DNA from: Candidatus Woesearchaeota archaeon
Lineage (GTDB): Archaea > Nanobdellota > Nanobdellia > Woesearchaeales > B72-G16
NCBI GenBank assembly: GCA_003650545.1
Contig: QMQO01000001.1
Location: 4,845 to 68,844, forward strand
Reading direction: 5' to 3'
Length of the DNA: 64,000 nucleotides
Part shown: positions 273 through 14,490 of the stretch, piece after piece
Layout of the letters: every line of letters begins with the position of its first letter
How positions within the stretch are numbered: the stretch's first letter is position 1
Notes under the pieces: generated by a model
Told to the model about the DNA's origin: nothing
The model's input: only the letters and a program-made list of their open reading frames with translations
Databases searched by the model: none
Program-made: the position numbers and the translations under genes

Positions 273-1190
273 ATGAGGCTAAGAAGGCTTGAAAAAAGCG
301 GTGGTACTTTTACGATTGAAACTCTGGTTTATCTGATATTGATGGTGATGACTTTTGCTATTCTTGGAAGCTTTCTCGTAAATGTTGGCGAGGGTGGTAA
401 ACAAGCAGAACGTGATCAGATCTGTAGAACATCTGCATTGTTGAATGCAAATACAAAAACTTTTGGGGTTGATCTTTTCTATCTTGACTGTCCACAGCGC
501 TTGGTGAGAATCACAGAGAAGGATGTTACAAAAAAAGCTACTAAAAATGAGAGAAAAAAGATAAGCGAATATGGCTATAGTGTTGACTGGGATAACCAGA
601 AAGAACTTGCAGGATATAGAACAGATGCAATTATTGCTAAAGAGATGTATGATTGCTGGCGCTTGCTTGGAGAGGGTAAGCTGCCTTTGTTTGGCCAGTG
701 GGCATATGATAGTATAGCAGAGAGTGATAAGGCTGCTAAGTGGAAATTATTCTTAGAGATGTTTGAAAAACAGCTGGCTTATGTGCAAGGTCTTGAACAG
801 GCAGATGTTATGTGTGTTATATGCTCGAGAATAAAGTTTGATAAAGAAGTTAAGGAAATGGTTAAAGAAGATAGAGATCTGACAAAATGGCTAAAATCTC
901 ATCCAATACCAAGTGAAGAGAAGGTGATGAGTTATTATGATTATCTGACAGAACTCCTTGCTCCTAAAACAAAGTTAATCCCATATAGTTATAATACAAA
1001 GAATCCGCTTGCAATAGTTTATGCTAGAGTCAATACAGGGTATCTAACTAACTTGGGAAATAGAATCTGGTCGGTTCTAACTGAAGGAATCTCTGCATCA
1101 GTCCAGGGAAGTTTTTATGATGGTGTTTCGATTATTGCCATAGCACCTTACTCTGATGCATTAAGGAATTGTGATCATATTGCTAACTGA
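273..1190 (+). CDS. pilin-like (class III signal) N-terminus protein, function unknown
   Basis: N-terminus is MRLRRLEKSGG/TFTIETLVYLILMVMTFAILG. This is a basic leader, then Gly, then a hydrophobic helix with Glu at +5, as in the G/FTLIE prepilin motif. No recognisable domain afterwards. Confidence 0.6.
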   Translation: MRLRRLEKSGGTFTIETLVYLILMVMTFAILGSFLVNVGEGGKQAERDQICRTSALLNANTKTFGVDLFYLDCPQRLVRITEKDVTKKATKNERKKISEYGYSVDWDNQKELAGYRTDAIIAKEMYDCWRLLGEGKLPLFGQWAYDSIAESDKAAKWKLFLEMFEKQLAYVQGLEQADVMCVICSRIKFDKEVKEMVKEDRDLTKWLKSHPIPSEEKVMSYYDYLTELLAPKTKLIPYSYNTKNPLAIVYARVNTGYLTNLGNRIWSVLTEGISASVQGSFYDGVSIIAIAPYSDALRNCDHIAN

Positions 1191-1575: not shown

Positions 1576-2973
1576 ATGGTTGCATTAAAAGAAGTAAAAA
1601 GTGCTGTACTTCTGGTGATTGTGTTAATTGTGGTTGTAGCATTGGTTTTTCCAGTTATAAGGGATACTGTAAAGGAAATGTTAGGTTATCAACTGCCTGA
1701 ACTTGAAAGTCCTGTGTTTGCACCAGAAGAGCAACAAACTTCAGTTAGATGTACTGCAGAGGCAATCGCGTTTGCTGCTGATTTTTTAAGCAATCCATCA
1801 AAACAACGTTTTAATGAGGAAAAAAAGAGATGCGGGTGTGAACTTAGGCATAGATGCGAGGATGGTGAAAAAATCGGCTGCAAGGATGGGGTAGCATTCG
1901 GTCAGATCTGTCTGAAATGGAAATATTTGAAGATTAAAAAAATGGAAAATGGCGAATCTGTGACCACAGGCCATAACATCATGAAATTGGAAAATTTGGT
2001 GCTGCCACAGGATGTTAGTTTGTCCCAGCAGGTACTAACCGAGTTTGCGCCTAGATACTGGTTTACCTCAACTACAAAAGGACCAAAGTTTTTAACTTAT
2101 TATGAGCATTTTCCAGAGGATGAAGCTGCGTCATGGGTTATTGCTAAGTCTAACATTGATATGTCCCCAAATATGTTCTCAAGGGTGAATGATCTCTATC
2201 AGGCGATGGATGAAATGTCTCAGGCGTCACGTGTTTCTGAGGATACTCTAGGATTAATAGAAATAACCCCTAATTTTTATGCAGGACTTGCAGACATTTG
2301 GGAGCCTATATCCTTAGAAGCAAGGTCAGGGAATATGCCATTTATGATGGGCATGATTATAAAAGATCCAAGTATTAAAATAGAAGGAAAGATTGCTTTT
2401 TTTTCTGTTCCATTCTATTTAGCAAGTCCGTGCAAAACCGATGCAATCATGGTTTTTGCAAGATGTAAATGCGATCTTCCTGCAAAATCAGATATGCCCA
2501 TATTTCAAAAAAAGATAAAATTAGATGGTGAAGAATATTCCATCCCATATAGAGGTGTTAAGTTAAAAGGACCAGTTCGCCCAAAAAATGGTATTTATGA
2601 AATTGAAGATGAGTCCCTAGCTGATTTTTCAAAAGCGTATAAGTATGGCTGTTATACTGGTTCTATATGGTCAGATGAAATATCTTTACCGTTTGTACAA
2701 TCTGTTTGTATGCTGTTCATTCCTGTAAACACAGACAAGTTCTGCTATACATCTTCGAGAGCCCTGGTCTATGGAGTATATCCTCAGTTAAAAGAACAAC
2801 TATCTAAATGGCCTGAAGGAGGACTTTTTAGCCAAATCTGGGGCGTCCTTAATAAAGAAGCGGCTGTTGATGCAGCAGGCAGATATAATGTACAATACTG
2901 GCCAGAGTCTCCATCAAGCTTTAATGAAGAGGAAATCAATAACATATTAAGTGAGTATTTCACTCAGCGTTAG
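1576..2973 (+). CDS. N-terminally anchored Cys-rich extracellular protein, function unknown
   Basis: N-terminus MVALKEVKSAVLLVIVLIVVVALVF is a single N-terminal TM helix. Long ORF with many Cys and no recognisable motif. Confidence 0.55.
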   Translation: MVALKEVKSAVLLVIVLIVVVALVFPVIRDTVKEMLGYQLPELESPVFAPEEQQTSVRCTAEAIAFAADFLSNPSKQRFNEEKKRCGCELRHRCEDGEKIGCKDGVAFGQICLKWKYLKIKKMENGESVTTGHNIMKLENLVLPQDVSLSQQVLTEFAPRYWFTSTTKGPKFLTYYEHFPEDEAASWVIAKSNIDMSPNMFSRVNDLYQAMDEMSQASRVSEDTLGLIEITPNFYAGLADIWEPISLEARSGNMPFMMGMIIKDPSIKIEGKIAFFSVPFYLASPCKTDAIMVFARCKCDLPAKSDMPIFQKKIKLDGEEYSIPYRGVKLKGPVRPKNGIYEIEDESLADFSKAYKYGCYTGSIWSDEISLPFVQSVCMLFIPVNTDKFCYTSSRALVYGVYPQLKEQLSKWPEGGLFSQIWGVLNKEAAVDAAGRYNVQYWPESPSSFNEEEINNILSEYFTQR

Positions 2974-4034: not shown

Positions 4035-4328
4035 ATGATGCTGAAGAAATCGCAAGGTTTAGCCCTGAGCACTCTAGCAATAGCTGTTCTGGTTATCATT
4101 ATTATTGTGGTTATAGTTGCTTTGATTATAGGCTATGTTGGTAATTGGAAATCTTCGGTTAATATCTCTAAAACTGCAGTAGCTAAAGCTAATTGTGAGA
4201 ATTTCTTGCGTCCAGAAAGAAAATGTATGCGCCAGTGTCCAGATGGATGGGTAGAGGTTGCTATAACTGCTGAGGATTGTGAAGGATATAAATGCTGCGA
4301 ACCTGTTGCTGCAGAAAAGAAAAAATGA
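4035..4328 (+). CDS. small pilin-like protein with Cys-rich C-terminus
   Basis: N-terminus is MMLKKSQG/LALSTLAIAVLVIIIIVVIVALIIG. The short ectodomain has CxxxxxxxxCxxxC and CEGYKCC. A GAGG sequence lies just upstream. Its stop overlaps the next start (ATGA). Confidence 0.6.
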   Translation: MMLKKSQGLALSTLAIAVLVIIIIVVIVALIIGYVGNWKSSVNISKTAVAKANCENFLRPERKCMRQCPDGWVEVAITAEDCEGYKCCEPVAAEKKK

Positions 4329-4969
4329 AACTAAAAAAACCATACAGAAGATTTTCACAAAACAAAAAAGGCATCACTCTTACATTAGAGGAAGTCATAA
4401 AGCTAATTCTTGTAACAATAGTCATTATAATCATTGTTATTCCAATGGGCCGTTTTATCTGGAGGATGATGCTGAAATCACCTAGCCCGGACATGATGAA
4501 CAGTTACAAGAGACTTGATTCAGAGATAAGGGATATAGAACAGGGAGATGTTGTGACAGTGCCAATAAAAACAAAAGCAGGGGAACCATTCCATATAAGA
4601 TTTTATACAAAATCAGATGGATATTCTCGTTGCAAGGGAAACGCATGTATGTGTCTCATGCGGAGTTCTGGTGTTTCTTTTGACTGTAAAATATACAAGG
4701 GTACAAAAGGGTATGTTGATTTTAAACTGGAGGATGGCAATGAGATAAATCCTGGTGAGGTTAGGCATGTAACCATCAGAAGAGACCCAGAGAAGATAGT
4801 TATCAAGATTAGTGCTGCGTCACAACTGTCTGCAGCTGGAGAGAAAAGCAAAGAAGGTGAAGCAACTGCGTCAATAGAAACAGGTTTGGGAATCGAGGGT
4901 ATGTCAAAAGGAACAAAGGCTGGCTCTTGGCAGTGGGTTGGTAAACAGATTGTTGTGACACCACCATAA
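4325..4969 (+). CDS. pilin-like N-terminus protein with CxxxxCMC domain
   Basis: The ATGA overlap with the previous gene makes 4325 the likely start, rather than the track start at 4292. N-terminus is MKLKKPYRRFSQNKKG/ITLTLEEVIKLILVTIVIIIIVI. The C-domain is paralogous to the partial gene at 2..265. Confidence 0.6.
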   Translation: MKLKKPYRRFSQNKKGITLTLEEVIKLILVTIVIIIIVIPMGRFIWRMMLKSPSPDMMNSYKRLDSEIRDIEQGDVVTVPIKTKAGEPFHIRFYTKSDGYSRCKGNACMCLMRSSGVSFDCKIYKGTKGYVDFKLEDGNEINPGEVRHVTIRRDPEKIVIKISAASQLSAAGEKSKEGEATASIETGLGIEGMSKGTKAGSWQWVGKQIVVTPP

Positions 4970-5119
4970 AAACACAAATAAGAAATTAAATATAAAAATA
5001 TAAAACAATAAAAAATTAAAAGTAAATAATAAAAAATAATAAAAAAATAAAATATAAGTAAAAATAGATTCATCATAGAGGTGTTGAATTTTAAATTACT
5101 TGAAAAAAAGAATAGAGCG

Positions 5120-7153
5120 ATGAAACAAAAACTTTTTATGATTGTGTTTTCAGTTTTGCTTTTGATAGTACTGGGTTTATCTTATGGAAATGAACGCGAC
5201 TGTCCGGATGGATGGACTTATGTGCCAGATGGTTATGAATATCATGGAGAGACTAAGCACTGCTTGGGGCCAGTTTTCGAAGAGGATAATAGATGCTATT
5301 GGCAACAGTATAAATGTTACTGTGATGCAAACGAGTATTGTAGTTTTGGACAATACTGCCTAAACCAAAAATGCGTTTCAGAAGAGAATGTGTTTAACAT
5401 AGGCGATAAAATAAAGCTGAACATAAACACCAATCCTGATAAGGATGTTGAGATCTTGATTACAGAAAAAGGACCAATTCTAAGATTGTTGCATGACGAA
5501 CAAGATATAGTCGACTCTAAAAAGGTTTATAAGGAAGGTGACTCTCTAAGAATAGCAGTTAATTATAAAGGTCATTTATTCTCATTGTATTTTAAGGATG
5601 GCGTTTTTCATAAAGTGATTGAAAAGGTTAATTTTGGTTTTCTAATTTCGGTTGATGAAGATAAAGACGGAAAATTATTATGTGGCGACAGGTATATCTA
5701 TGAATATAACAATGGTGATCCACAAGATTACAAGAGGTATATAATTGTGTTTAAGCAAGGTAAGGATAAGTGTGAGGTCAAGGGTTTTTATAGAGACGAT
5801 AAAGAAGGCGGTGGTGGTGAAACTTCTTGGTATTATGATCCTGGCGACAAGCCAGTGTCAATAAATGATGATAGTAATCTTAGAGAGTTAAAACAAAAGT
5901 TTTATTCTTATGATTTTGTTGATGTAACAAATGATGTTGCTGCTATGCTTTTTGAATTAGATGACAATAGAGAGGTTATTAGGAACATACCAACAGAGAC
6001 AACAGAGACAACAGAGCCAGGAGCGCCAAAGGAAATTGAAGGTAAAAAAAAAGTTTATTTATGTAAGAATGCTGTAGATGATTCTGACATTTGTACAATA
6101 TATCTAAATATATGTAAAGATGAAGAGTATGAGAATTCTTACAATAGTTTTGAAGAATGCTTAGAGGCAAGAGTAGGGAGAGAAAAGGCGAAGTTTTATT
6201 TTTATTTTGTTAAGGATGTTAATTGGGAAGATGATGATGAGTTTCGGGAGTTCAGCAAAAAAAGTTTTGAGTACCTTAAAGATGTTTTGAAGAGGTCAGA
6301 TCCAGAAGCATACGATCTATTTTCTCAAAAAATTGAAGCAAAATATATAACAGACTTAGATGTTGATTGCGCTGAGCTAAAAAAAGCAAGGGATAAGAAA
6401 ACTTTGTTAAGATACATATCATATCATGAAGATGATATTGATAATCTACCATCACAGCGCATACCATATAAGGTTATTTGTGTTAAGGATACTTTCTATA
6501 AAGAATATATTAATCCAAATGAACCTTATTATGGGGAACCAGACTGTGAAACCTATGTAATAGGAACAACCTGGCTATATAGTTCTGTGATCTTTATATC
6601 TCGTAGACATCCTGATCCATTTAAGTCTCAAGTTGAACACATTGATACACTGGCTCATGAATTTGGTCACTCGATGGGGTTTTGTGATGAGTATGCTTGG
6701 AAAACATATCGGGACTCTGATATCTCTATGTCCGGTCTACTTTGGCATATTGGATGCCCAAATGAATTTCCTCCTTGTTGTGAACGTGTCTTCTTTCCAT
6801 ATGAGAATTATATAAAAAATGTTAACGCTGAGATGATTAAGAAGATTAAGGAATTTAAAAAATATGGTTTTAACTGTGTGGCGTCTCAAGACTTTGACCC
6901 TAACCCTGATTTTCCATATAGATGTGATCACAATATGAAGTGTGGTGTTTATCATATTGATCCTTATTGTGCTGGATATCCGTTTGGAAAACCAGAAGAA
7001 AAAATAAGAAGTATTATGGGTATAGGGAAAGTACGTCTTGATCCCGAATATATTATAGTGTATCCTACCCCTATAGTACCTTCTGAGCAAGGTAAGAAAG
7101 GCACAACATTAGCGAATTATGTCAGATTAAAAGGAATAGGTGTCTTTGGATGA
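5120..7153 (+). CDS. secreted Cys-rich zinc metallopeptidase (HExxH; M64-like HEFGHSxGxxDEY motif)
   Basis: Sec-type signal MKQKLFMIVFSVLLLIVLGLSYG. Catalytic-looking motif TLAHEFGHSMGFCDEYAW. Many Cys throughout. The family call is from motif memory only. Confidence 0.6.
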   Translation: MKQKLFMIVFSVLLLIVLGLSYGNERDCPDGWTYVPDGYEYHGETKHCLGPVFEEDNRCYWQQYKCYCDANEYCSFGQYCLNQKCVSEENVFNIGDKIKLNINTNPDKDVEILITEKGPILRLLHDEQDIVDSKKVYKEGDSLRIAVNYKGHLFSLYFKDGVFHKVIEKVNFGFLISVDEDKDGKLLCGDRYIYEYNNGDPQDYKRYIIVFKQGKDKCEVKGFYRDDKEGGGGETSWYYDPGDKPVSINDDSNLRELKQKFYSYDFVDVTNDVAAMLFELDDNREVIRNIPTETTETTEPGAPKEIEGKKKVYLCKNAVDDSDICTIYLNICKDEEYENSYNSFEECLEARVGREKAKFYFYFVKDVNWEDDDEFREFSKKSFEYLKDVLKRSDPEAYDLFSQKIEAKYITDLDVDCAELKKARDKKTLLRYISYHEDDIDNLPSQRIPYKVICVKDTFYKEYINPNEPYYGEPDCETYVIGTTWLYSSVIFISRRHPDPFKSQVEHIDTLAHEFGHSMGFCDEYAWKTYRDSDISMSGLLWHIGCPNEFPPCCERVFFPYENYIKNVNAEMIKKIKEFKKYGFNCVASQDFDPNPDFPYRCDHNMKCGVYHIDPYCAGYPFGKPEEKIRSIMGIGKVRLDPEYIIVYPTPIVPSEQGKKGTTLANYVRLKGIGVFG

Positions 7154-7863
7154 AACAATTAAATCATTGGAAAAAACAAACAAAAATTGGTGTGTGTATT
7201 TTGATTTTTCTATTTTTTGTTAGTCTTGTTTGTGCAGACAAAGCTTTCTTTGTGACATTGAAATTTTATAATCCTGCTCTAGGAAATGATTCTGTTGAAC
7301 TCTTGGGCTATAGTGTTGGCTATATCAATCCCTGGCCTGACGAACCAAAATCTGCAGATTATCAGATTCGGCTTTATGATAGTCACGGAGATTTGATATC
7401 TGAAAGAAATCATCAGGTGATTTTTCTTTTATTTGGGAGATTTGTCAGAGAATTAAATCAAACGATCTCGATAATCCCAATGAAATATTCCAGAGACATT
7501 AAACATATACAAGTCTATAGAAAAGGAACCTTATTGCTATCTAGAAAAATAACTGAACTTTGTAATGGCAATGGATTTTGTGATGGCAAAGAAAATTATT
7601 ATAGTTGTAGCACAGATTGTAAAAGCTATTCAGCAGACGGTGTTTGCGTACCTGTAGGTGATTTCGTGTGCGATCCTGACTGTTTACAGGGTACAGATCC
7701 TGATTGCTATAAGGTTAAACCAATTGAGGTTTCACACAGGCCAATGGAGGTGTCAGCAGAAGTTGAAGAAAGATTCAATGTCTGGATAGCAATTGCTTTT
7801 TTAGCGTTTATGTGTGCGTTACTCTTGTCGTTCTTATACTACAAGAGACGCCATGCTAAATAA
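7150..7863 (+). CDS. type I membrane protein with Cys-rich ectodomain, function unknown
   Basis: ATGA overlap with the metallopeptidase gene. N-terminal signal ends ...FLFFVSLVCA. Cys cluster CNGNGFCDGKENYYSCSTDCKS. C-terminal TM WIAIAFLAFMCALLLSFLYY is followed by KRRHAK. Confidence 0.55.
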   Translation: MKQLNHWKKQTKIGVCILIFLFFVSLVCADKAFFVTLKFYNPALGNDSVELLGYSVGYINPWPDEPKSADYQIRLYDSHGDLISERNHQVIFLLFGRFVRELNQTISIIPMKYSRDIKHIQVYRKGTLLLSRKITELCNGNGFCDGKENYYSCSTDCKSYSADGVCVPVGDFVCDPDCLQGTDPDCYKVKPIEVSHRPMEVSAEVEERFNVWIAIAFLAFMCALLLSFLYYKRRHAK

Positions 7864-8280
7864 AATTATTTTGACATTGTGTAGGATTAATTGTAGGATT
7901 AAGGCTTTACTCAATTAAGGTGTTAATTAATGATTAAATTTGATAATTGAGATTACATGAATCTGAAAAATGCTTGAGAAAGATGAACTGTACATCATGT
8001 TAGGATTGGAGATTTGTGCAGATGTTCTTGTTAGACGATATAGATGTTGAAGGGCTGTCGAAGGACAGAGTGCTTGATAAAAAAACAATATAAAAAATAA
8101 TATAAAAGAAAAAAATAAAAATGGCAAATGGTAATATAAATAGTACTATGATAGTTTGCACAAACAAAAGCTTTATAAATGATTGTTCATTATTCTAAAC
8201 AACTGTATGAAATTTGAACGATTGTTCAATTTATTGAACATTTTTTTAAAAAGATGTGTAGTCTAAAAAAGGAGAGAATC

Positions 8281-8529
8281 ATGTTTAGAGAATTTGGGTT
8301 GCTAAAACCTTTTCTGGATAATCCTGGTGAAGAGTATCATCTTCGTGAGTTGGCCAGAATGCTTAGGAAGAGTCCAGCTACAGTTGATAAGAATCTTGAA
8401 GTGTTCGTTAAAGCCGGTGTTCTTAATAAAAGAAAAATGCGAATGTATACTCTCTACTCTGCTAATGAGGCTAACCCTTTTTTTAGAGAGATAAAGCTGT
8501 TTTATAAAAAAATGAAGAAGGTGTTTTAA
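8281..8529 (+). CDS. small winged-helix DNA-binding protein (putative cluster regulator)
   Basis: The segment YHLRELARMLRKSPATVDKNLEVFVKAGVLNK looks like a wHTH recognition region. GGAG lies upstream of the ATG at 8281. The stop abuts the next start. Confidence 0.5.
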   Translation: MFREFGLLKPFLDNPGEEYHLRELARMLRKSPATVDKNLEVFVKAGVLNKRKMRMYTLYSANEANPFFREIKLFYKKMKKVF

Positions 8530-9576
8530 ATGAAGCGCACAAGGAATCGGCCAAGGAATCTGCTAACCTCAAGAAAGGGAACAATGCAGCAGTTGATCTG
8601 GGAGCCCTTGATGCACCTAATCTTAGTGTTTGTGATAATATTCCTGCCGCTGCTGGCTTATACAGCAGCTATAACAAATGACACTATGTTTGAGAAGAAG
8701 TTCTATGCGATAGATACTGCGTTGATGTTGGAGACTTTGTATGCTGCTCCAGGAAGTGTTTTGTTTGATTATGGTGAAAAGAATGTACAACAATTTAGTT
8801 TTGATTTCAGTCAGCACAAAGTAGAGGTTTTTGATAGAGAAAAATCTGGCAAAAAGCCTCCAAAGTATCAGATAATGTATTTTAATGTTATTGCAGATAA
8901 TAATGTGCCATTTGTGCAAAGCTCTGTTGATAAACAACCTCTAGTTTTTCTCAAGTCCGATGTTGTTGGAGTGAATCTTGAACCCAGCAAATACCAAGAA
9001 AGCTTTTTAAAACAGACACCATGCAGCATTAAAGATTATAGAATTACTGGTAAAGTTGTTTTTGATTATGAGAGGCTTGCAGAAGAAGAATCGCCTGTTT
9101 ACACAGAAGTTGCTGGAACTGAGAAAATGATGAGCAATAGCGATCTAAATGCGATAATGGAGTCAGCAATTATGTTAAGGCTTAATGATGCGGATGAAGA
9201 TTATTTTTCATTAAAATATTCTACTGGCTCTGGAGTGGGTTACGAGTATACTATTGAGCAGCTTCCAGAGCATGACTTGTTTATAATGTTTAAGGTTTCA
9301 GACTTGAATAAAATATATTATAACGCTGACAAGGAAAAGTACGCGAAACTTGCATGCCTATTACAGAAAGAATTCGGCTATATAGCTTCACCAAAGAAGG
9401 GTGTTGATGGTGTAGAGATTAATTTTGCTAGAACCAGGTTTGTTTACTCTACACTGGATGAAAAAAATGCGATTGTTAAGGACTTTATAAATGATGTTGT
9501 GAGCAAGACCACAAAAGCCATTGAAATGTTTTTCGGTGGGGAGGAAGCTGAGAAAAAGGGAACTGAGTTTGAGTAA
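8530..9576 (+). CDS. pilin-like N-terminus protein, function unknown
   Basis: N-terminus is MKRTRNRPRNLLTSRKG/TMQQLIWEPLMHLILVFVIIFLPLLAYTA. It is followed by a roughly 300-aa soluble domain with no recognisable motif. Confidence 0.5.
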   Translation: MKRTRNRPRNLLTSRKGTMQQLIWEPLMHLILVFVIIFLPLLAYTAAITNDTMFEKKFYAIDTALMLETLYAAPGSVLFDYGEKNVQQFSFDFSQHKVEVFDREKSGKKPPKYQIMYFNVIADNNVPFVQSSVDKQPLVFLKSDVVGVNLEPSKYQESFLKQTPCSIKDYRITGKVVFDYERLAEEESPVYTEVAGTEKMMSNSDLNAIMESAIMLRLNDADEDYFSLKYSTGSGVGYEYTIEQLPEHDLFIMFKVSDLNKIYYNADKEKYAKLACLLQKEFGYIASPKKGVDGVEINFARTRFVYSTLDEKNAIVKDFINDVVSKTTKAIEMFFGGEEAEKKGTEFE

Positions 9577-9804: not shown

Positions 9805-10308
9805 ATGAAACTGTTGAAAAGTAAACGAGGAATAACCGAGTTAGTGATGAAGTGGGTAGTAAGACTTATAATGGTGGTTGTAGTGTTATTTGCACTTAAC
9901 TTTATACTACAAAATGCTTACAAACAAAAACTAGACTATGGATGTCTGAGGGCAGATGTGTTGACCTATCGTTTAATGTATGGAAAAAATTTGATGATGT
10001 ATACTGATGATGTGACAGGCAGAGTGTATACCGGAATAATTGATTTAGAGGAGTTTAGAAAAAAAAATTTACTAGATGATGCAATGGGTGGTGGTATCAC
10101 GACTATCGCGATAGAAGCTTTGTTGAAGTATAAAGATGAGTCTGGTGAGGATAAAACAGAGAGTTTATATTTTAATAAGGATTTTTACGAGACAGTGAAA
10201 AGTTCTACTACGAGAAGAAATCAGCATCTTTTTTTTGTGAAGGTCAAAGATGGTGATAGGTTCTATGATGGTATTTTAGATATAACTGTGTTTGACTTTT
10301 CAAGATGA
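9805..10308 (+). CDS. small pilin-like protein
   Basis: N-terminus MKLLKSKRG/ITELVMKWVVRLIMVVVVLFALNFIL. Size (167 aa) is typical of a pilin subunit. The 4-nt overlap with the next gene suggests coupling. Confidence 0.6.
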   Translation: MKLLKSKRGITELVMKWVVRLIMVVVVLFALNFILQNAYKQKLDYGCLRADVLTYRLMYGKNLMMYTDDVTGRVYTGIIDLEEFRKKNLLDDAMGGGITTIAIEALLKYKDESGEDKTESLYFNKDFYETVKSSTTRRNQHLFFVKVKDGDRFYDGILDITVFDFSR

Positions 10309-10730
10309 TACGAAAAATGCATAAAAAAGGTATTTCGGAGATGTTTATGTTAGTGGTGGTTATATTCATCTTGTTTGCTTATTTCATGATATTCTTTTCA
10401 ATAATAGGTTTGACATTTGAGGAGAATAAACGCGAAATCAAAGCAGAGTTTTCTGCAAAGTTCAACGAAACAAATTTTGTAAATATATTGCGTGCTGGTA
10501 CAATTTATGGAGATTTTGCAGAGCTAATTGCTTTTGCTTGTTTTGACGGGAATTATGAAGATAAGTTGGGGAATGTAAAAGACAGACTTGTAGATAAAAA
10601 TCTCTTTAAAGCTATGTCAATTAAATGTGATAATGGAAAAAATATTGACTATGGTGCAGGTTTCCGGGGTTATAGGATTCAAATTCCTTCATTGAATAGA
10701 AAAATAATAAATGTGTATTTTATAAGCTAA
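10305..10730 (+). CDS. small pilin-like protein
   Basis: N-terminus MIRKMHKKG/ISEMFMLVVVIFILFAYFMIFFSIIG. Product is 141 aa. Confidence 0.6.
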   Translation: MIRKMHKKGISEMFMLVVVIFILFAYFMIFFSIIGLTFEENKREIKAEFSAKFNETNFVNILRAGTIYGDFAELIAFACFDGNYEDKLGNVKDRLVDKNLFKAMSIKCDNGKNIDYGAGFRGYRIQIPSLNRKIINVYFIS

Positions 10731-10770: not shown

Positions 10771-12225
10771 ATGAACAGAAAAGCAGCAATAGGGTTGTTT
10801 GAAGTTGGCTTTATGATGGTTGTTGTTCTATCACTGACAATAATGTCTGTTGCTTTGTTGAATAAGATAAACAAAGTGCATGTTATTGGTAAAAAACAAG
10901 CTGCATTGATTGAAGCTTACAAAGAAGGGGAGAAGACGCTGCTTTATATAGATGAAGCTACAAGTCTGGCTGCAAAGCAAACTATATATGACCTGGCAAA
11001 GTTGGCTGGCTTCAACCTACCAAAAGAATGTGGTGCGTATCTTGGTGTACCAAAGTGGCATGCACCTAGATGGGAAAATGGAAAATTCAAGGGAATGCAA
11101 TACTGTGAACCTGAAACAGAAGAGTTAGAAAATGACTTTATCAAAATGTTTAACTTAGCGTTTGCAGAGTATGCAGCTGAATTTTCCAGTAAAAATCTGC
11201 ATGTTAAGGTTCCGTTAGATAATCACGATATTGTGCTTATGCCAATTGAAAATAAAAATTCTATGGATATAATAGGTATTTCAAAGAAGCCTATACTGAT
11301 CAGTATTTTAAAAGATGCTATTGGCGCTGACACAGCAGGCTTGCTGAGGAAAACAACAATTAATGTAGATAGTGTTGATTATGATGTGGTGGTGTTGGCA
11401 GGAGAAACACATGAAGATGTAGTAAAAACAATATCACTAGATCTTGTAAAATGTTATAAGGATTCAAAAACAGATCCAAATGCTTGTAAGAATAAGCGGT
11501 ATATTGTGCGTAATGAGGTCACTAAAAATGATATAGAAGAATTCTTGAGTGATGAAGAAAATTTAATTAAAAACAGTATTGACAAACAGACTGCAAAAGA
11601 GCTTATAGGGAATAAATATTTTGTCTTTCCTACAACACAAATAACAGACGATAAAATTGAAACAAATTATATTTATGATTTCAAGGTTGAAAGAGGCAGG
11701 GTTACAGTGTCTCGTTCAAAACAGCTGCCTCTGGTGTGGCCAACAGATTATAATGTGGTAACCTCTTGTTATGGAAACAGAAAAATTTCTGGAAGAGCAA
11801 GCAAATTCCATAGAGGAGTAGATATCAGAGCAGGAGCCGGCGATAATATATACGCTATTGCTGATGGGAGTGTTACTTATGTTGGTTGGAAGGGAGGATA
11901 TGGAAATACTGTTCAAATTGATCATGGTAATTTTGTTTCGCTATATGGACATAATAAAGAGATAAAAGTTAGGAAAAATCAGAAGGTTAAGGCAGGCGAG
12001 GTGATTGCTCTTGCAGATAAAACTGGCGTGAGCAAAGGAGATCATCTACACCTTTCGATATATGTTGATGGAGAAGCCAAAGATCCTCTTGAATTTTATA
12101 TGCAACATCTCGGTAGTTTAGACGTGCTGGGACTGAGATTTGTAAAAAGAAGCAATTGCGTATACTATTTGGAAAAAAACAAATATGCGTATGCAGATTA
12201 TATTGAAGCAAATCAGGTAGGTTAA
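10771..12225 (+). CDS. M23 family metalloendopeptidase (peptidoglycan endopeptidase type) with pilin-like N-terminus
   Basis: C-terminal KFHRGVDIRAGAGDNIYAIADGSVTYVGWKGGYGNTVQIDHGNFVSLYGH...GDHLHLSIYVDGEAKDP carries the HxxxD and HxH zinc motifs of M23. N-terminus is MNRKAAIG/LFEVGFMMVVVLSLTIMSVALL. Confidence 0.85.
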   Translation: MNRKAAIGLFEVGFMMVVVLSLTIMSVALLNKINKVHVIGKKQAALIEAYKEGEKTLLYIDEATSLAAKQTIYDLAKLAGFNLPKECGAYLGVPKWHAPRWENGKFKGMQYCEPETEELENDFIKMFNLAFAEYAAEFSSKNLHVKVPLDNHDIVLMPIENKNSMDIIGISKKPILISILKDAIGADTAGLLRKTTINVDSVDYDVVVLAGETHEDVVKTISLDLVKCYKDSKTDPNACKNKRYIVRNEVTKNDIEEFLSDEENLIKNSIDKQTAKELIGNKYFVFPTTQITDDKIETNYIYDFKVERGRVTVSRSKQLPLVWPTDYNVVTSCYGNRKISGRASKFHRGVDIRAGAGDNIYAIADGSVTYVGWKGGYGNTVQIDHGNFVSLYGHNKEIKVRKNQKVKAGEVIALADKTGVSKGDHLHLSIYVDGEAKDPLEFYMQHLGSLDVLGLRFVKRSNCVYYLEKNKYAYADYIEANQVG

Positions 12226-14490
12226 ATGAAAAAACATCTGATCAGGAATGGAATGTTTGTACTGCTAATGTTGATAATGTTTGGCGGAATGATTTTGTGG
12301 TTTACAGAAGACAATGGCTCTAATCAGGTTACAGGAATGGTTGATTTGAACAAAGATGCAATTGATAGAATCGCACAATACGATGACATCATTAAGAAGG
12401 CAGCTCACAAGTTTAACGTGCCAGAGAGTTTGATCAAGGGCACTATTTATGTAGAATCTAGAGGAAATTATAAAGCAATATCAAAAAGGCCCGCGTATGA
12501 GGGCGGTGGTTTGTGTGGAGCAGTCGGCCTGATGCAATTAATGCCTTTGACTGCGTATAAGTACGGCAAGGATTATGGTTTAACAGTTCTATTCGAAGAT
12601 TCTCGTGATGCAAAATGTAATCCTGCTATGGCAAGAAGGTTGTACGATGCGATTCAAGGAAAGAGTGACGAAGATATCTTTCGGATGGATAATCGTTTCG
12701 ACCCTGAAAAAAACATCTATGCTGGAACTAATTATTTGGCTTATATGCTTCATACAAAATATGCAGGTGACCCAGAAGCTTACGCAAAAACAATGATAGA
12801 ATATAATTCTGGTATCTCCTGTAAAGAAAAAACAGTTGAAGAGTGTCGTGCTAGTTTAACAAAACAGACAAGTGATTATTTTGATTTTGTGTTGGATGTT
12901 ATAAGTGAATATGAAGGTGGCATCTTGCCAATCTCGGTCGCGCCACCAACCTATGCAAGCTATGTCAATAGAATCTATGAAACAACAGGCGTCTATCTGG
13001 TAGATCCATCTTTTAGAACCAGAGTAGATTTTGACTTTGGGGTTTATAAAAAAGCATTTGAAGAGTTTAAGAAGGTTGAAGAAGTGTGCGGGAAGTTCGA
13101 TAAGCAGAAAAAGTTTGACGATTGCGTAAAACAAGAAACAGAAAAGCTTGGTGGAGGTCTCAGGTGGGGTGTGGTTGGTGATGGTGTCAGTGATGAAGAC
13201 AAACTGATTAAGTTTGCAAAGCAGTACGAGCAATGCTTATCATCTTTAGATCATTTTTGTTATTGCGATCTTGATGTTCCTGACGGTTATGAGATCTATA
13301 CTGAGCAGGAAGCTCAGAACGAAGACGGTTTCTACAGATTTAAGTTGTTGAAGGATGGTAAAGTTGTTTATGCTAATAACGATTATGGGGTAATTCACGC
13401 ATTATGTATATATTCAAATCATAAGATAGAAAAAGTAAACAACCTTAGATTAAGCGATAATAAGGTTGTTGTTGGAAATAAAAATGAAGAAAAAGATGTT
13501 GATAGACTCAGAATGGTTAAATACATAGATGATAACTATGAGTTATTATCGTGTATAAGCGTAGAAAAACAAAAGCCTTTGGATTTACATGAATGCAGAA
13601 AAGCACCTATAAGAACCGCACTCATAAAAGCGAAAACAGGCCTTAGCTTATATGTGTCGGATGGTGTAAATGTTAAAGAAGAAGAGGTAGTCATAAATTT
13701 TGCTTATGATATTCCTGACGAGGTTGGACCTTCAAATGAACTGGCAATCAATGCTATAGATGAGTTTAGGGCTGAAGGCTCGGTTATGTTGAGTTGGCGA
13801 GATTCCCCAGACACAGACACAATAAAATATCTTGTTTATTATGGGAAAGGTTCTGTTTCTATTACAGAAGAACAAAACCCGCAACTAGAGGTTGTTGTTG
13901 CTGATATTCCTGAGAAAAATCTTTATTATGATTTAAGTGAAGATGCTAGGCCTGTTAAAGATAAACCAAATGAATTTGTTGTAGAACGTGTACCAGGCAG
14001 AGCTGATGACATTTCTCTAGAACATAATGAACCATATTACTCTTTCAAAGATAATAGGTATCATGTTATTATAGACAACTTAGAGGATGGTGTAGAGTAT
14101 AGCTTTGTAGTAGTACCTGTAGATATTTGGGGCAACAAGAATTTAGTTGTAGAAGAAGGCAAAAATATGATTAAAATTATACCTGAAGATGATTTACCTC
14201 CTGCTGCAATAGATTTCAGTGTTGCTTCAGATGGAACCGTTGCTTGGAATGTTGATTTAAAGAATTTAAAGAATGATGATGGTAGCGAGCTAGTAGATCT
14301 TCAGAATGTCTATGTGTATGAGAGTCCTAAGCCTTTTAGCTATATGGATATACCGAAAATGAATAAATATCGCACTCCAGTAAGTGGAAAGATGTATAAG
14401 GCGAGTAAGGGTCGTTATGTGGCTGTTGTTGCCAGAGATGAAACCGATCATGTCAGTAGATATATAAATATGATCTTATTAAAAAAGTAA
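12226..14490 (+). CDS. soluble lytic transglycosylase (SLT/GH23) domain protein with C-terminal FN3-like repeats
   Basis: The region PESLIKGTIYVESRGNYKAIS...AVGLMQLMPLTAYKYG...YAGTNYLAYML matches the SLT catalytic Glu-Ser and GLMQ motifs. C-terminal segments such as SVMLSWRDSPDTDTIKYLVYY and YSFVVVPVDIWGNKN look FN3-like. N-terminal anchor is MKKHLIRNG/MFVLLMLIMFGGMILWF. The start abuts the M23 gene stop. Confidence 0.85.
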   Translation: MKKHLIRNGMFVLLMLIMFGGMILWFTEDNGSNQVTGMVDLNKDAIDRIAQYDDIIKKAAHKFNVPESLIKGTIYVESRGNYKAISKRPAYEGGGLCGAVGLMQLMPLTAYKYGKDYGLTVLFEDSRDAKCNPAMARRLYDAIQGKSDEDIFRMDNRFDPEKNIYAGTNYLAYMLHTKYAGDPEAYAKTMIEYNSGISCKEKTVEECRASLTKQTSDYFDFVLDVISEYEGGILPISVAPPTYASYVNRIYETTGVYLVDPSFRTRVDFDFGVYKKAFEEFKKVEEVCGKFDKQKKFDDCVKQETEKLGGGLRWGVVGDGVSDEDKLIKFAKQYEQCLSSLDHFCYCDLDVPDGYEIYTEQEAQNEDGFYRFKLLKDGKVVYANNDYGVIHALCIYSNHKIEKVNNLRLSDNKVVVGNKNEEKDVDRLRMVKYIDDNYELLSCISVEKQKPLDLHECRKAPIRTALIKAKTGLSLYVSDGVNVKEEEVVINFAYDIPDEVGPSNELAINAIDEFRAEGSVMLSWRDSPDTDTIKYLVYYGKGSVSITEEQNPQLEVVVADIPEKNLYYDLSEDARPVKDKPNEFVVERVPGRADDISLEHNEPYYSFKDNRYHVIIDNLEDGVEYSFVVVPVDIWGNKNLVVEEGKNMIKIIPEDDLPPAAIDFSVASDGTVAWNVDLKNLKNDDGSELVDLQNVYVYESPKPFSYMDIPKMNKYRTPVSGKMYKASKGRYVAVVARDETDHVSRYINMILLKK

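Follow-up and report, generated by a model that had tools for sequence, protein, structure and literature searches.

Two abutting peptidoglycan hydrolase genes on a Woesearchaeota contig

According to our analysis, two genes on the + strand of the window (the whole 64-kb stretch of DNA that was analysed; all features of the locus described below lie on this strand) encode a modular M23 metallo-endopeptidase of 484 aa, identified by Pfam, alignment and family profile (10771..12225), and a 754-aa protein with a hydrophobic N-terminus, an SLT domain, an orphan Cys-rich 'body' and one or more FN3-like domains (12226..14490). The TAA stop codon of the former occupies 12223-12225 and the ATG of the latter lies at 12226, so that the genes abut, as an earlier note on this DNA had described. 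We regard both products as genuine peptidoglycan hydrolases, with intact active sites and predicted activity, encoded on a Woesearchaeota (DPANN) chromosome. The exact NCBI match is DRJ17_00095 (Candidatus Woesearchaeota archaeon), located on a 106-kb contig which was also recovered by independent assemblies. The archaeal genes of this contig in the window are those for eIF-6, prefoldin, FtsY, ribosomal protein S8e, aIF2-alpha, GINS51 and PAC2; archaeal housekeeping genes lie on either side of the locus, and GC content is even across it (0.33-0.37). An S_layer_C protein is encoded in the same window as both hydrolases (49736-52240), which confirms the archaeal contig and the S-layer gene of the earlier note. 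In the DNA examined, we saw no mur-type genes. Other bacterial-type envelope genes in the window encode LspA and a CapA-like PGA_cap protein.

The M23 protein

The M23 protein begins with a class III (prepilin-like) signal, MNRKAA-IGLFEVGFMMVVVLSLTIMSVALL (10771..10860), recognised by motif statistics and by an AF2 helix which extends over aa 2-78, with a pLDDT of 86-93 over aa 1-40. The conserved family N-domain (aa 38-115; 10882..11115) is defined in the alignment by the pattern IGxxQ...YID..A and by Cys87 and Cys112, both of which are invariant; this domain, for which AF2 confidence is low (pLDDT ~50 past residue 50), possibly forms a small pilin head. An insertion of ~180 aa (aa 135-318; 11173..11724), which is missing from the orthologues P0002 and P0003, has no Pfam match and a pLDDT <50. 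The Peptidase_M23 catalytic domain (11803..12087), identified by Pfam, structure alignment and motifs, is followed by a conserved C-terminal tail with the sequence SNCVYY at nt 12151-12168 (12106..12222), and in the family alignment Cys463 of the tail and Cys333 (VVTSCYG) are both invariant. This layout of leader, hydrophobic helix, small conserved N-domain and enzyme module resembles that of a modular pilin.

The zinc motifs HRGVD and DHLHLS had been described as complete, and our searches bear this out. The Pfam match at aa 345-439 (1.9e-29, 102 bits; cut-off, 28.7 bits) covers the profile in full (1-96/96), and the motifs HRGVD (aa 347-351), LYGHN (aa 391-395) and DHLHLS (aa 424-429) contain all five catalytic and zinc residues, namely, H347 and D351 (nt 11809-11823), H394 (within 11941-11955), and H425 and H427 (within 12040-12057). 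These motifs align residue for residue with the solved enzymes 6jmx (6e-17), 6muk and 3slu. The AF2 model of the domain (pLDDT >90) superposes on 6muk with an rmsd of 1.7 Å over 120 columns and on LytM with a target-normalised TM-score of 0.81. The best sequence and structure matches are cell-shape/division DD-endopeptidases of Gram-negative bacteria, i.e., C. jejuni Pgp3 (6jmx), N. gonorrhoeae 6muk, N. meningitidis NMB0315 (3slu) and H. pylori Csd3, at 32-37% identity and with all active-site residues aligned, a similarity from which cross-link specificity is not readable; beyond the catalytic domain of ~100 aa, everything differs. The enzyme is predicted to cleave the peptide stems or cross-links of peptidoglycan.

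The SLT protein

The N-terminal hydrophobic segment of the SLT protein (aa 1-27; 12226..12306) probably serves as a Sec signal or an anchor. It falls outside the [KR][GA] motif of the cluster, the sequence MKKHLIRNG-MFVLL... being a mismatch to it, and the orthologues carry ordinary Sec-type signal peptides. The shared N-terminal anchor proposed in the earlier note thus holds for the M23 protein (basic-G/A-hydrophobic) and is absent from its neighbour. The JGI call starts the gene 17 codons downstream, at M18 (nt 12277).

The SLT domain (GH23, family-1 type; 12358..12915), supported by Pfam, motifs and alignment, matches the Pfam model with 5.2e-18 and 65 bits (cut-off, 21.3 bits). The previously reported catalytic context is in place, with the catalytic E77 in YVESRG (aa 75-80; nt 12448-12465), GLMQLMP (aa 101-107; nt 12526-12546) and YAGTNYLAYML (aa 165-175), followed by EYNSG (aa 192-196; nt 12799-12813), and the surroundings of the catalytic Glu can be aligned to those in an MltC-like enzyme and in the SLT domain of a phage tape-measure protein. 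We predict a family-1 SLT-type lytic transglycosylase or muramidase cleaving the glycan strand; SLT domains can be muramidases instead of lytic transglycosylases, as in PrgK. The 'body' module (12922..13710), of which the first ~130 aa are kept in many family members, is fused in some members and encoded by a separate gene in others, and no known homologue was found for it. An FN3-like domain with a ~60-aa insertion relative to compact homologues follows (aa 496-645; 13711..14160): the window protein has no direct Pfam fn3 match, one family member has such a match at 8.8e-5, and the family profile which includes aa 496-645 matches solved FN3 domains (5.7e-9, 3.8e-6, 2e-5 and 5.5e-5). The remaining aa 646-754 (14161..14487), a candidate second beta-rich or FN3-like unit unique to this protein, gave self-matches only, so of the FN3-like repeats noted earlier one is borne out. 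Overall, the sequence points to a Sec-type secreted or anchored partner of the M23 enzyme.

A conserved locus of pilin-like proteins

The M23 and SLT genes close, at its 3' end, a locus that is conserved in Woesearchaeota and comprises 15-22 co-directional genes; it starts ~4.8 kb ahead of the window, at contig position 606. The window opens with the 3' end of a gene for a 167-aa pilin-like protein begun upstream (8..265), followed by genes for a 305-aa pilin-like protein with the leader EKSGG-TFTIETLVYLILMV... (273..1190) and a 465-aa N-terminally anchored cluster protein (1576..2973). The 97-98-aa pilin-like protein encoded at 4035..4328, with the leader KKSQG-LALSTLAIAVLV... and a 6-Cys head, is a candidate major subunit and has a paralogue upstream of the window; next to it lies a 214-aa pilin-like protein with the leader NKKG-ITLTLEE... 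and a CxxxxCxC motif (4325..4969). Among the locus products are tiny proteins of 80-136 aa consisting of leader, hydrophobic helix and small head with no other features, a typical major-pilin layout which makes them candidate major pilins. Two cluster genes with Sec signals (5081..7863) encode proteins of 690 aa and 237 aa that belong to no Pfam family, the larger one containing an HEFGH motif (nt 6656-6670). A 91-aa protein abutting the core genes (8254..8529) is possibly a regulator, given matches to HTH_5 and other HTH Pfam models (E 0.006-0.09), all under the curated cut-offs.

The conserved four-gene 3' core consists of an Amidase_3-like protein, two proteins of ~140-195 aa and the M23 protein. 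Here, the slot held in related loci by the Amidase_3-like gene, three genes ahead of M23, is occupied by a gene for a 348-aa pilin-like protein with the leader SRKG-TMQQ... (8530..9576), homologous (blastp, 1.6e-12) to L098_4861, which itself matches Amidase_3 at 1.2e-9. The window protein has no Pfam or PDB match, and amidase metal/catalytic residues are not recognisable in the alignment; the Amidase_3-like protein of the window seems to lack catalytic residues, which counts against the multi-enzyme device proposed below. The other two core genes encode a conserved 167-aa pilin-like protein with the leader KRG-ITELV... (9805..10308), homologous to L002_2062 (8e-5) and L098_5819 (8e-6), and a 137-aa pilin-like protein with the leader HKKG-ISEMF..., a core gene by position (10317..10730).

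Nearly all products of the locus begin with an archaeal class III signal, [KR][KR][GA]Q followed by ~20 hydrophobic residues. Of the 89 locus proteins, 82 fit the leader motif, compared with 4 of the 37 other proteins of the window, in agreement with the pilin-like operon inferred earlier, and the position that follows the final K/R ahead of the hydrophobic core holds G/A/S in 56/89 (background, 18%; p = 3e-20), with Q at position +2 in 21/89. The leaders match the archaeal processing sites established by experiment, KGQV/I/L, KGIS, KAIS and RAQI (PMC4371748), and most of the hydrophobic stretches, inspected by eye, have no evident AxA-type cleavage site. Secreted window proteins outside the locus, the S-layer protein included, carry ordinary Sec signals. 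A plain signal-anchor would likewise show a basic N-terminus followed by a hydrophobic stretch. Genes for a type IV filament ATPase, a platform protein or an A24-type prepilin peptidase were found neither in the window, 5.4 kb upstream and 10 kb downstream of it, nor in the flanking 10 kb of four related loci, and no locus protein matches the Pfam pilin or Class_IIIsignal models. A type 4 filament 'system 1' of the Epd/EppA type has been reported for DPANN archaea (bioRxiv 10.64898/2026.04.22.720090).

The family and its fused modules

An exhaustive search with the M23 family profile returned 229 matches <1e-30, and among the 148 top cluster representatives, taken at 50% identity, no fewer than 63 combine the N-domain with M23. 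All eight named members with this combination (8/8) are Woesearchaeota or Nanoarchaeota. The N-domain and C-terminal tail are family-specific, their recurrence being confined to proteins that bear the locus-type leader, and the window protein is, by these features, a member of a Woesearchaeota-specific family composed of class III leader, N-domain, M23 domain and Cys-tail. H394 is conserved in 69/69 members and D351 in 62/62; all five residues are present in 49/69, with 13 more carrying H427D. E77, G101 and Q104 of the SLT domain are kept in 19/19 aligned sequences. Synteny is kept in six related loci (L002, L006, L098, L100, L101 and L102; GC, 0.32-0.62), in three of which (L098, L100 and L102) RadA and RPA adjoin the locus. 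Instead of a one-off import from bacteria, we find a family and a locus conserved across Woesearchaeota.

Many relatives carry M23 and SLT on a single polypeptide. One of these, P0067 (1065 aa), matches the window M23 and SLT proteins in collinear order (blastp, 2e-18, 3e-19 and 1.7e-15), and in L100 the two are split into separate genes exactly like the window pair. These fusions strengthen the idea, already put forward in the earlier note, that an endopeptidase and a glycan cleaver would act together on murein. The domains added in 35 long members are SLT (14), Amidase_2 (8), GDSL (2), VanY (1), Glucosaminidase (1) and 3D (1), and every recognisable enzyme domain added in the family acts on peptidoglycan, GH73 and a GDSL esterase beside a lytic transglycosylase included. 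Pfam scans of the window proteins and the family recognised no peptidoglycan-binding domain (LysM, PG_binding_1, SPOR or SH3).

Comparison with known systems

Murein hydrolases in DPANN genomes are not new, as the earlier note had pointed out, and AR20 in Castelle 2015 reportedly offers a precedent for a Woesearchaeota lytic transglycosylase. Woesearchaeota SLT/GH23 domains in large extracellular proteins have been published (PMC8204110; GH23 in Vigneron et al. 2022, PMC9723730) and resemble the window SLT protein in phylum, domain and size class; they were proposed to bind and degrade bacterial walls, with bacteria as possible hosts. The parts of these two reports cited here make no mention of an adjacent or fused M23, class III leaders, a multi-gene locus or other fused modules. 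M23 has been noted in four Nanoarchaeia genomes (PMC12352652), and Strock et al. 2025 (PMC12352652) described bacterial-type M23 enzymes in archaea with bacteria as the proposed target, e.g., the Halogranum M23 + PG_binding_1 protein 'Woldo'. Those enzymes are secreted toxins which combine a catalytic with a recognised wall-binding domain, whereas the window M23 protein has no recognised binding domain and carries a pilin-like leader and N-domain within a conserved pilin-like locus.

In the modular type IV pilins PilB and PilC of Streptococcus sanguinis, a class III signal likewise precedes a small pilin module, onto which a functional module is grafted; tip exposure has been proposed for such bacterial pilins, which can bear enzymes or adhesins, and peptidase modules are among the grafts (PMC8179133). 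They differ in having the G|FxxxE N-methyl signature (IPR012902), where the window leader is of the archaeal EppA/PibD type, and in the window protein an M23 murein hydrolase takes the place of the graft and filament incorporation is putative. The Sulfolobus bindosome, in which large non-pilin archaeal proteins with prepilin-type leaders use type IV machinery for surface localisation, offers another parallel; its cargo is made up of solute-binding proteins which serve nutrient uptake and share the bas operon with PilB/PilC homologues, whereas the cargo here would be wall hydrolases, with no ATPase or platform protein nearby. Wall hydrolases of conjugation and secretion systems include VirB1-type SLT proteins and PrgK of pCF10 (LytM + SLT + CHAP), and the closest M23 relatives include fusions of M23 with TrbL/VirB6. 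Like the window pair, PrgK joins LytM/M23 and SLT in an N-terminally anchored protein inside a surface-machine locus. PrgK, however, remodels the wall of its producer and its LytM is degenerate, whereas the active site of the window M23 enzyme is intact and its producer presumably has no murein; the target would therefore have to be another cell.

Interpretation of the locus

Taking the domain identities, intact active sites, conserved locus, leader motif and fusions established here, we consider it probable that the locus encodes a pilin-like multi-enzyme device whose M23 and SLT enzymes would cut the wall of a bacterial partner or prey. A prepilin peptidase would process the pilin-like proteins, which would then stay in the membrane or become part of a type IV filament or a pseudopilus, plausibly forming a complex at its tip. 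A multi-enzyme peptidoglycan-cutting head would thereby be offered to the bacterial cell, and endopeptidase and glycan-strand cleaver would jointly open the sacculus locally, permitting attachment, access or nutrient release.

The SLT protein, which lacks the leader motif, argues against the filament. A possible, if doubtful, alternative does away with the filament altogether: the bacteriolytic enzymes would be anchored in the membrane or released, their N-termini being plain signal-anchors or Sec signals, and would serve antagonism or scavenging of bacterial walls, as with the halophile enzymes of Strock et al. 2025, while the locus as a whole would encode an array of surface proteins. It would account for the Sec-type signals of the SLT and 'body' proteins and for the lack of a Pfam pilin signature and of assembly ATPase, platform protein and prepilin peptidase genes near any locus examined, and there are documented cases of bacteria being killed by secreted archaeal M23 enzymes (PMC12352652). 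It sits less well with a [KR][KR]-[GA]-Q leader far over background and identical to proven EppA and PibD sites, confined to the locus while other exported proteins of the genome have classic Sec signals, or with the tiny proteins resembling major pilins and the ~23-residue hydrophobic stretches mostly devoid of AxA-type sites.

We find it improbable that the enzymes act on the producer's own envelope or a non-murein substrate, the M23 enzyme trimming glycine-rich surface proteins or pilins and the SLT enzyme another glycan, in the manner of the 'space-making' hydrolases found with bacterial secretion and pilus machines. SLT and LytM hydrolases of bacterial machine loci, PrgK among them, do act on the producer's wall, no peptidoglycan-binding domain was detected, and the window holds the further envelope genes named above; yet this organism has an S-layer gene and no mur-type genes in the DNA examined, and the fused modules (Amidase_2, VanY, GH73, 3D and the GDSL esterase) are all murein-specific. 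Moreover, lytic transglycosylation requires the C6-OH of MurNAc, a sugar absent from pseudomurein. A bacterial contaminant (e.g., CPR), a mis-assembly or a very recent one-off transfer into the MAG seems next to impossible. Taken alone, the M23 domain shares up to 49.5% identity with bacterial M23 domains and only ~40% with its own orthologues, and the domain-only trees, suggested earlier for tracing a bacterial donor, were run and are poorly resolved. The archaeal flanks, even GC, independent assemblies and conserved locus, next to RadA and RPA in other Woesearchaeota, effectively refute this explanation, including the mis-bin that the earlier note had named as a potential objection, and the family-specific N-domain and tail, with all named members in Woesearchaeota or Nanoarchaeota, weigh against it too.

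Woesearchaeota lytic transglycosylases were known; for the pilin-like context, the M23 partner and the fusions, we came across no earlier account. Two intact bacterial wall-cutting enzymes in a tiny DPANN archaeon that has no bacterial-type wall of its own suggest a surface device for breaching bacterial walls.

Catalytic domains of the M23 and SLT proteins

According to our analysis, the gene at window positions 10771 to 12225 (+), which ends with a TAA stop codon at 12223 to 12225, encodes a 484-aa protein whose catalytic domain is, judged by its sequence, a genuine member of Peptidase family M23, the LytM-type zinc endopeptidases, and not a chance resemblance. The Pfam model Peptidase_M23 (PF01551) matches residues 345 to 439 over its full profile (1.9e-29; 102.1 bits against a cutoff of 28.7), which bears out the earlier note that had read complete zinc motifs, HRGVD (347 to 351) and DHLHLS (424 to 429), in this product and had advised a Pfam comparison. 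A further motif, LYGHN (391 to 395), holds the third catalytic His, and the zinc and catalytic residues H347, D351, H394, H425, and H427 are all present and aligned to those of solved M23 enzymes, including Campylobacter jejuni Pgp3 (6jmx; 6e-17), the Neisseria enzymes 6muk and 3slu, Helicobacter pylori Csd3, LytM, and lysostaphin. AlphaFold2 (AF2) modeling predicted the LytM β-sheet fold with pLDDT values above 90 for this domain, and Foldseek superposed the model on 6muk (rmsd, 1.7 Å over 120 columns) and on LytM (target-normalized TM-score, 0.79 to 0.81). Outside this domain, the model is informative only in the leader helix. Model confidence is low in an insertion of about 180 aa (residues 135 to 318; 11173 to 11724 [+]) lying between the catalytic domain and the family-specific N-domain (residues 38 to 115); this insertion has no detectable homology and is missing from the closest orthologues. 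A protein identical to the M23 product is present in NCBI as [quoted passage not shown] encoded on a contig of 106,055 bp.

The next gene (12226 to 14490 [+]) abuts the M23 gene, as the earlier note had described, with the TAA codon followed directly by the ATG at 12226. Of two public calls for its start, one gives a 754-aa protein from this abutting ATG and the other a 737-aa protein from M18 (12277), which would take off most of the hydrophobic N terminus. The SLT context that had been recognized by eye in the product was recovered in full: Pfam SLT (PF01464) matches at 5.2e-18 (65.1 bits against a cutoff of 21.3), and the motifs YVESRG (E77-S78), GLMQLMP (with G101-L-M-Q104), and YAGTNYLAYML are all present, besides an AYNxG-type motif, E192-Y-N-S-G196. 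The context of the catalytic Glu aligns with that of an MltC-like lytic transglycosylase and of the SLT domain of a phage tape-measure protein, and E77, S78, G101, and Q104 are kept in all 19 aligned relatives. At the level of sequence, the domain is thus a real match to SLT/GH23 family 1, not a chance one. The SLT domain may form 1,6-anhydroMurNAc or may hydrolyze its substrate as a muramidase, which the SLT domain of PrgK proved to be.

Behind the SLT domain lies a Cys-rich module of about residues 236 to 375, here termed the body, which is common to many family members and is either fused or encoded by a separate gene after the M23 gene (loci L002, L006, L101, and L102). A profile of the body (A9) found no homologue in the PDB, and Pfam returned only stray subthreshold matches to it. 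The earlier note had also described FN3-like repeats after the SLT domain, and this holds for one unit, residues 496 to 645, which carries an insertion of about 60 aa relative to compact versions in relatives. The FN3 domain matched best by a profile of these compact versions with the window segment (A6) was that of RPTP-delta (5.7e-9), followed by those of two chitinases (3.8e-6 and 2e-5, respectively) and of fibronectin (5.5e-5). Pfam fn3 gave no direct match on the window SLT protein; the last 110 aa or so (residues 646 to 754), unique to the window protein, are a candidate second unit. AF2 modeling of the 754-aa protein from a two-sequence alignment reached a mean pLDDT of 35.4, a value too low for assigning a fold to the SLT, body, and FN3 parts.

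A family of M23 proteins in Woesearchaeota

The family to which the M23 protein belongs was revealed by exhaustive profile search, because word-indexed searches are nearly blind to it: the N-terminal 330 aa of the M23 protein matched solely itself, and the SLT protein had two matches. An exhaustive HMM search, for which the window protein was aligned with its two nearest relatives, detected 229 proteins below 1e-30, and an N-domain followed by an M23 domain was found in at least 63 among the best 148 representatives (clusters at 50% identity). The N-domain is recognized by IGxxQ...YID.SA...CG.Y.G..W...C.P, a pattern that includes two invariant Cys residues, and many proteins with this arrangement end in a conserved SNCxY tail. 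All eight members with an organism name are from Woesearchaeota or a "Nanoarchaeota archaeon." Conservation of the active site is high, with H394 in 69/69, D351 in 62/62, and H425 in 67/68 of the members compared; the five canonical residues occur together in 49 of 69, and in 13 more H427 is replaced by Asp. These 13 proteins, among them P0057, P0067, and P0088, carry HxD in place of HxH in the second zinc motif, and in a few the first His is missing as well; they may use an alternative metal ligand or be inactive copies.

Scanning genome contigs with the same alignment returned bacterial matches to the M23 domain only and one Methanosarcinales metagenome-assembled genome (MAG), the source genome not being among the matches. 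The M23-domain gene in this uncultured Methanosarcinales MAG (locus L017, positions 10001 to 10417) lies on the 269-kb contig CAYVNN010000003.1, which is labeled Methanosarcinales; it has 32% identity to the window domain and may represent another archaeal M23 protein outside DPANN.

Fusion and fission of the enzyme pair

Long fusions make up roughly half of the family. One of them, P0067 (1065 aa), carries the N-domain, M23, SLT, body, and FN3-like domains on a single chain and is collinear with the window pair, its residues 11 to 124 and 177 to 322 corresponding to the M23 protein and its residues 355 to 933 to residues 20 to 638 of the SLT protein. As in the window, the locus L100, from a Woesearchaeota assembly, has the two enzymes on separate chains, the gene for an M23 protein of 358 aa abutting that for an SLT protein of 1101 aa. 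Pfam scans of 35 long family members identified SLT as the most frequent added domain (14/35), followed by Amidase_2 (8/35) and GDSL esterase (2/35), with VanY, Glucosaminidase (GH73), the 3D domain, and fn3 in 1/35 each. All recognizable added enzyme domains of the family are murein acting. Ape-type esterases are known, and on this basis an SGNH/GDSL esterase beside a lytic transglycosylase would fit a need for MurNAc de-O-acetylation. Because of the fusions, the murein-acting added modules, and the conserved SLT residues, there is strong comparative evidence that peptidoglycan is the predicted substrate and that the products of the two window genes would act together. LysM, PG_binding, SPOR, and SH3 domains were found in neither window protein nor in the 35 long relatives. 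The window pair differs in this from the modular archaeal peptidoglycan hydrolases of Strock et al. (2025), which combine a catalytic domain with a recognized peptidoglycan-binding domain.

Architecture of the locus and synteny

The pair forms the 3' end of a locus of about 19 kb and about 22 codirectional genes, which extends from contig position 606 to window position 14490 (the window starting at contig position 5407) and has a methyltransferase-like gene, as read from the sequence, as its 5' neighbor. Related loci were reached via the closest homologues (L001, L002, and L006) or via the exhaustive profile search (L098, L100, L101, and L102). L002, L098, and L100 to L102 comprise up to 17 codirectional genes with the same N termini as in the window locus and share a conserved 3' core order, namely, an Amidase_3-like protein (about 290 to 380 aa), a protein of about 160 to 180 aa, one of about 155 to 195 aa, the M23 protein, and then an SLT and/or body protein. 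The contig of L006 is short and carries just the M23 gene and the body gene behind it. L001 has no M23 gene; it comprises a small helix-turn-helix (HTH) gene and the genes for a pilin-like protein of 638 aa and for a protein whose SLT domain is at the C terminus. Synteny is supported by matches of the 8530 product (the protein encoded from window position 8530) to L002_1203 (1e-10) and L098_4861 (1.6e-12), of the 9805 product to L002_2062 (8e-5) and L098_5819 (8e-6), of the M23 N terminus and catalytic domain each on its own, and of the middle of the SLT protein to L002_4076 (4e-4). A scan of metagenome contigs gave 80 new loci, and when these were screened by tblastn with all locus proteins, none showed synteny, which was limited to L002 and L006. 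L098, L100, and L102 lie on archaeal chromosomes, since RPA and RadA genes follow the locus, and the GC content of the related loci ranges from 0.32 to 0.62; the locus has therefore been kept across compositionally very different genomes. A single import from bacteria does not agree with a family and a locus that recur across Woesearchaeota.

The Amidase_3-like gene of the window (8530 to 9576 [+]) appears, on the comparisons made here, to be degenerate. The homology of its product to L098_4861, a protein matching Amidase_3 at positions 41 to 173 (1.2e-9), lies mostly in the N-terminal half; the window product itself had no match in Pfam or the PDB and lacks the His/Glu/His motif residues in the alignment, and the profiles of the Amidase_3-like family (A4 and A7) found nothing in the PDB. 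In this gene, three positions before the M23 gene and Amidase_3-like in some genomes, loss of zinc ligands and catalytic residues is patchy: the L100 protein (7776 to 8876) keeps DPAHGG and has the His of SIH changed to G, the opposite holds for the L098 protein (4861 to 5844), and both features are absent from the window copy. The amidase-like protein may be a wall-binding pseudo-enzyme.

Directly 5' of the hydrolase core, a small protein with subthreshold helix-turn-helix matches is encoded at 8254 to 8529 (+), which may be a dedicated regulator. A small protein similar to it by eye (L001, 313 to 498) precedes the pilin-like and SLT genes of that locus, and blastp gave no match between the two at E ≤ 1. 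Farther upstream, a 690-aa protein with a Sec signal (5081 to 7153 [+]) has no Pfam family and contains HEFGH, a zincin-like HExxH motif, at 6656 to 6670.

Prepilin-type leaders

In nearly all locus proteins, a few basic residues and then G, A, or S precede a hydrophobic stretch of about 20 residues at the N terminus. This is seen in KRG-ITELV (9805), KKG-ISEMF (10317), KKG-ITLTL (4325), RKG-TMQQ (8530), KKSQG-LALS (4035), and SGG-TFTIE (273), along with RKAA-IGLFEV of the M23 protein, whose leader reads MNRKAA-IGLFEVGFMMVVVLSL... and whose predicted AF2 helix spans residues 2 to 78, with confidence to about residue 45 and a pLDDT of about 50 for the strands that follow. When the leader was defined as [KR][GAS] among residues 1 to 32 and a 15-aa hydrophobic window starting within the next 12, it was found in 82 of 89 locus proteins versus 4 of 37 other window proteins, in keeping with the view of the earlier note that the M23 enzyme is embedded in a pilin-like operon. 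In a noncircular test, the residue after the last K or R before the hydrophobic core was G, A, or S in 56 of 89 (background, 18%; binomial p = 3e-20), and the residue after the G/A/S position was Q in 21 of 89. Substrates of Methanococcus maripaludis EppA have the sites KGQV, KGQI, KGQL, and RAQI, with Q needed at +1, and those of Sulfolobus PibD have KGIS, KAIS, and RALS (PMC4371748). The locus motifs KKGQ, KKAQ, and KGIS-like are the same as these established archaeal prepilin processing sites.

Ordinary Sec signals occur in further exported proteins of this genome, among them the S-layer protein, an 835-aa protein at 37285, and the proteins at 5081 and 7150. The SLT and body proteins are exceptions to the leader motif, with Sec signals in the orthologues of L100 (...ASA|LD) and L102 (...IKA|QD). 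The N-terminal anchor of the cluster, which had been attributed to both enzymes, is therefore carried by the M23 protein but not by the SLT protein, whose N terminus is RNG-MFVLL.

Very small locus proteins of 80 to 136 aa combine the leader and hydrophobic helix with a tiny six-Cys head and look like candidates for major pilins. The six-cysteine head is found in the protein at 4035 to 4328 (+), in a paralogue at L004 (4706 to 5116), and in homologues in L098, L100, L101, and L102, and its spacing, C-x6-C-x5/6-C-x9-11-C-x5/6-CC, is one that we take to be close to the β-defensin pattern. A profile of 13 such proteins matched platypus defensin-like peptide 1 (1b8w; E = 1.3e-3), with other β-defensins and crotamine weaker; the likeness could be cysteine-driven convergence.

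Relation to bacterial M23 domains and other genes in the window

Phylogenies of the M23 domain, which the earlier note had recommended for tracing a bacterial donor, did not name one, because the domain-only trees are poorly resolved. A BLOSUM62 neighbor-joining (NJ) tree placed 65 of 66 family domains, including that of the window, in a single clade. In Kimura-distance NJ analysis (93 bootstraps, with saturated-distance warnings), a clade of at least 55 of the 66 was weak, occurring in 11 replicates, with the window domain inside in 17.

Taken alone, the window domain (11803 to 12087) resembles bacterial M23 domains (49.5% identity to P0008 and 49% to P0006) more than it does the orthologues nearest to it, where identity is about 40% (40.2% for P0002 and 41.7% for P0074), yet 61 of 66 family domains have their nearest neighbor inside the family. 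A replaced domain, a slow rate of evolution, or biased sampling may explain this. Among the closest bacterial M23 relatives, P0006 and P0015 are fused with TrbL/VirB6 (PF04610) and are thus conjugation-machine hydrolases.

Other bacterial-type genes are present in the window. A lipoprotein signal peptidase II (Peptidase_A8/LspA; 7.5e-34), unusual for archaea, is encoded at 36367 to 36885 (−), and another bacterial-type envelope gene, CapA-like PGA_cap (2.9e-80) of the poly-γ-glutamate capsule synthesis type, is found at 41648 to 42739 (−). A Phage_integrase-family gene (23272 to 23964 [+]) overlaps the predicted TTG start of a gene for a 1560-aa Big_13/Big_7 surface protein (23891 to 28573 [+]), and 1.6 kb beyond the latter is a Zot-like P-loop ATPase gene (30137 to 31039 [−]); the integrase and Zot-like genes may be the remnant of an integrated element. 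Neither a tRNA gene nor an Rfam family was detected within the window.

A possible wall-piercing filament and its alternatives

From two predicted murein hydrolases with intact active sites, their conservation across the lineage, the fusion and fission of their genes, murein-specific modules, and a prepilin-type leader on the M23 protein and its neighbors, we tentatively put forward a reading that we regard as possible and still doubtful: that Woesearchaeota build a type IV pilus-like filament whose tip is the conserved four-gene pilin-like core with a peptidoglycan-cutting head, made of the M23 modular pilin, the degenerate amidase-like pilin, and the associated SLT/FN3 protein, as a wall-piercing organelle to attach to and breach bacterial hosts or prey. 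The leaders of the locus proteins would be cleaved, with the predicted cut just behind the A or G next to the basic residues, the proteins would be displayed on a type IV filament or would prime one, the four-gene core would resemble a minor-pilin tip complex in number and size, and the sacculus targeted would be that of a bacterial partner.

The chief rival reading has the same enzymes act without a filament, as membrane-anchored or secreted lysins. It is favored by the position of the SLT and body proteins outside the leader motif and by the fact that no curated pilin model matches the locus proteins (no Pfam pilin, N_methyl, or Class_IIIsignal match at E ≤ 0.1 to 1 in those scanned). It is favored as well by the lack of any assembly ATPase, platform protein, or A24 prepilin peptidase in the window, the contig flanks, and the 10-kb flanks of the related loci, the 10 kb past the 3' end of the window being likewise free of type IV filament genes. 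On the other side stand the likeness of the leaders to archaeal prepilin processing sites and a general report of type 4 filament system 1 in DPANN (bioRxiv 10.64898/2026.04.22.720090). An action of the hydrolases on the archaeon's own envelope is unlikely; the DNA examined showed no mur-type genes, the other enzyme modules added in the family are murein specific, and the window encodes an S_layer_C protein (49736 to 52240). This confirms the S-layer gene that the earlier note had placed in the window. The hydrolase genes are directly followed by genes for eIF-6, prefoldin alpha, and FtsY, with ribosomal protein S8e, aIF2-alpha, GINS51, and PAC2 genes elsewhere in the window, and Woesearchaeota are placed by the NCBI taxonomy as a phylum within Nanobdellati, the DPANN group. 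These archaeal flanking genes, an even GC content of 0.33 to 0.37 across the locus, and the conserved chromosomal position make contamination unlikely, and on the same grounds mis-binning and a mobile-element origin were discarded.

Relation to known systems and significance

That murein hydrolases occur in DPANN was, as the earlier note remarked, known before: lytic transglycosylase proteins of Woesearchaeota and Pacearchaeota have been published (PMC8204110 and PMC9723730), and archaeal M23-type hydrolases, including those of four Nanoarchaeia genomes, have been published as well (PMC12352652). In the literature on Woesearchaeota and DPANN, we found no account of pilin or class III signals joined to these enzymes. 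The nearest concepts are the bacterial modular pilins (PMC8179133), the Sulfolobus bindosome, and machine-encoded LytM-SLT hydrolases such as PrgK.

We know of no earlier archaeal example of an enzyme-bearing modular pilin, and the locus would be the first. To our knowledge, all DPANN archaea cultivated so far live on another archaeon. Bacterial hosts for the very abundant Woesearchaeota and Pacearchaeota have been argued mainly from isolated GH23 annotations, and the locus makes this hint a defined, conserved, multicomponent candidate apparatus, in which an endopeptidase, a glycan cleaver, and the murein-specific modules of relatives are physically linked to prepilin-type proteins and the active sites stay intact throughout a lineage in which murein synthesis is not expected. 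The family of N-domain and M23 proteins offers a marker to screen genomes for bacterial association, and new antibacterial lysins might be obtained from the locus enzymes. If the filament reading is true, the small β-defensin-like six-cysteine subunits might add a membrane-active function, and cross-domain episymbiosis or predation would be a lineage-wide trait.
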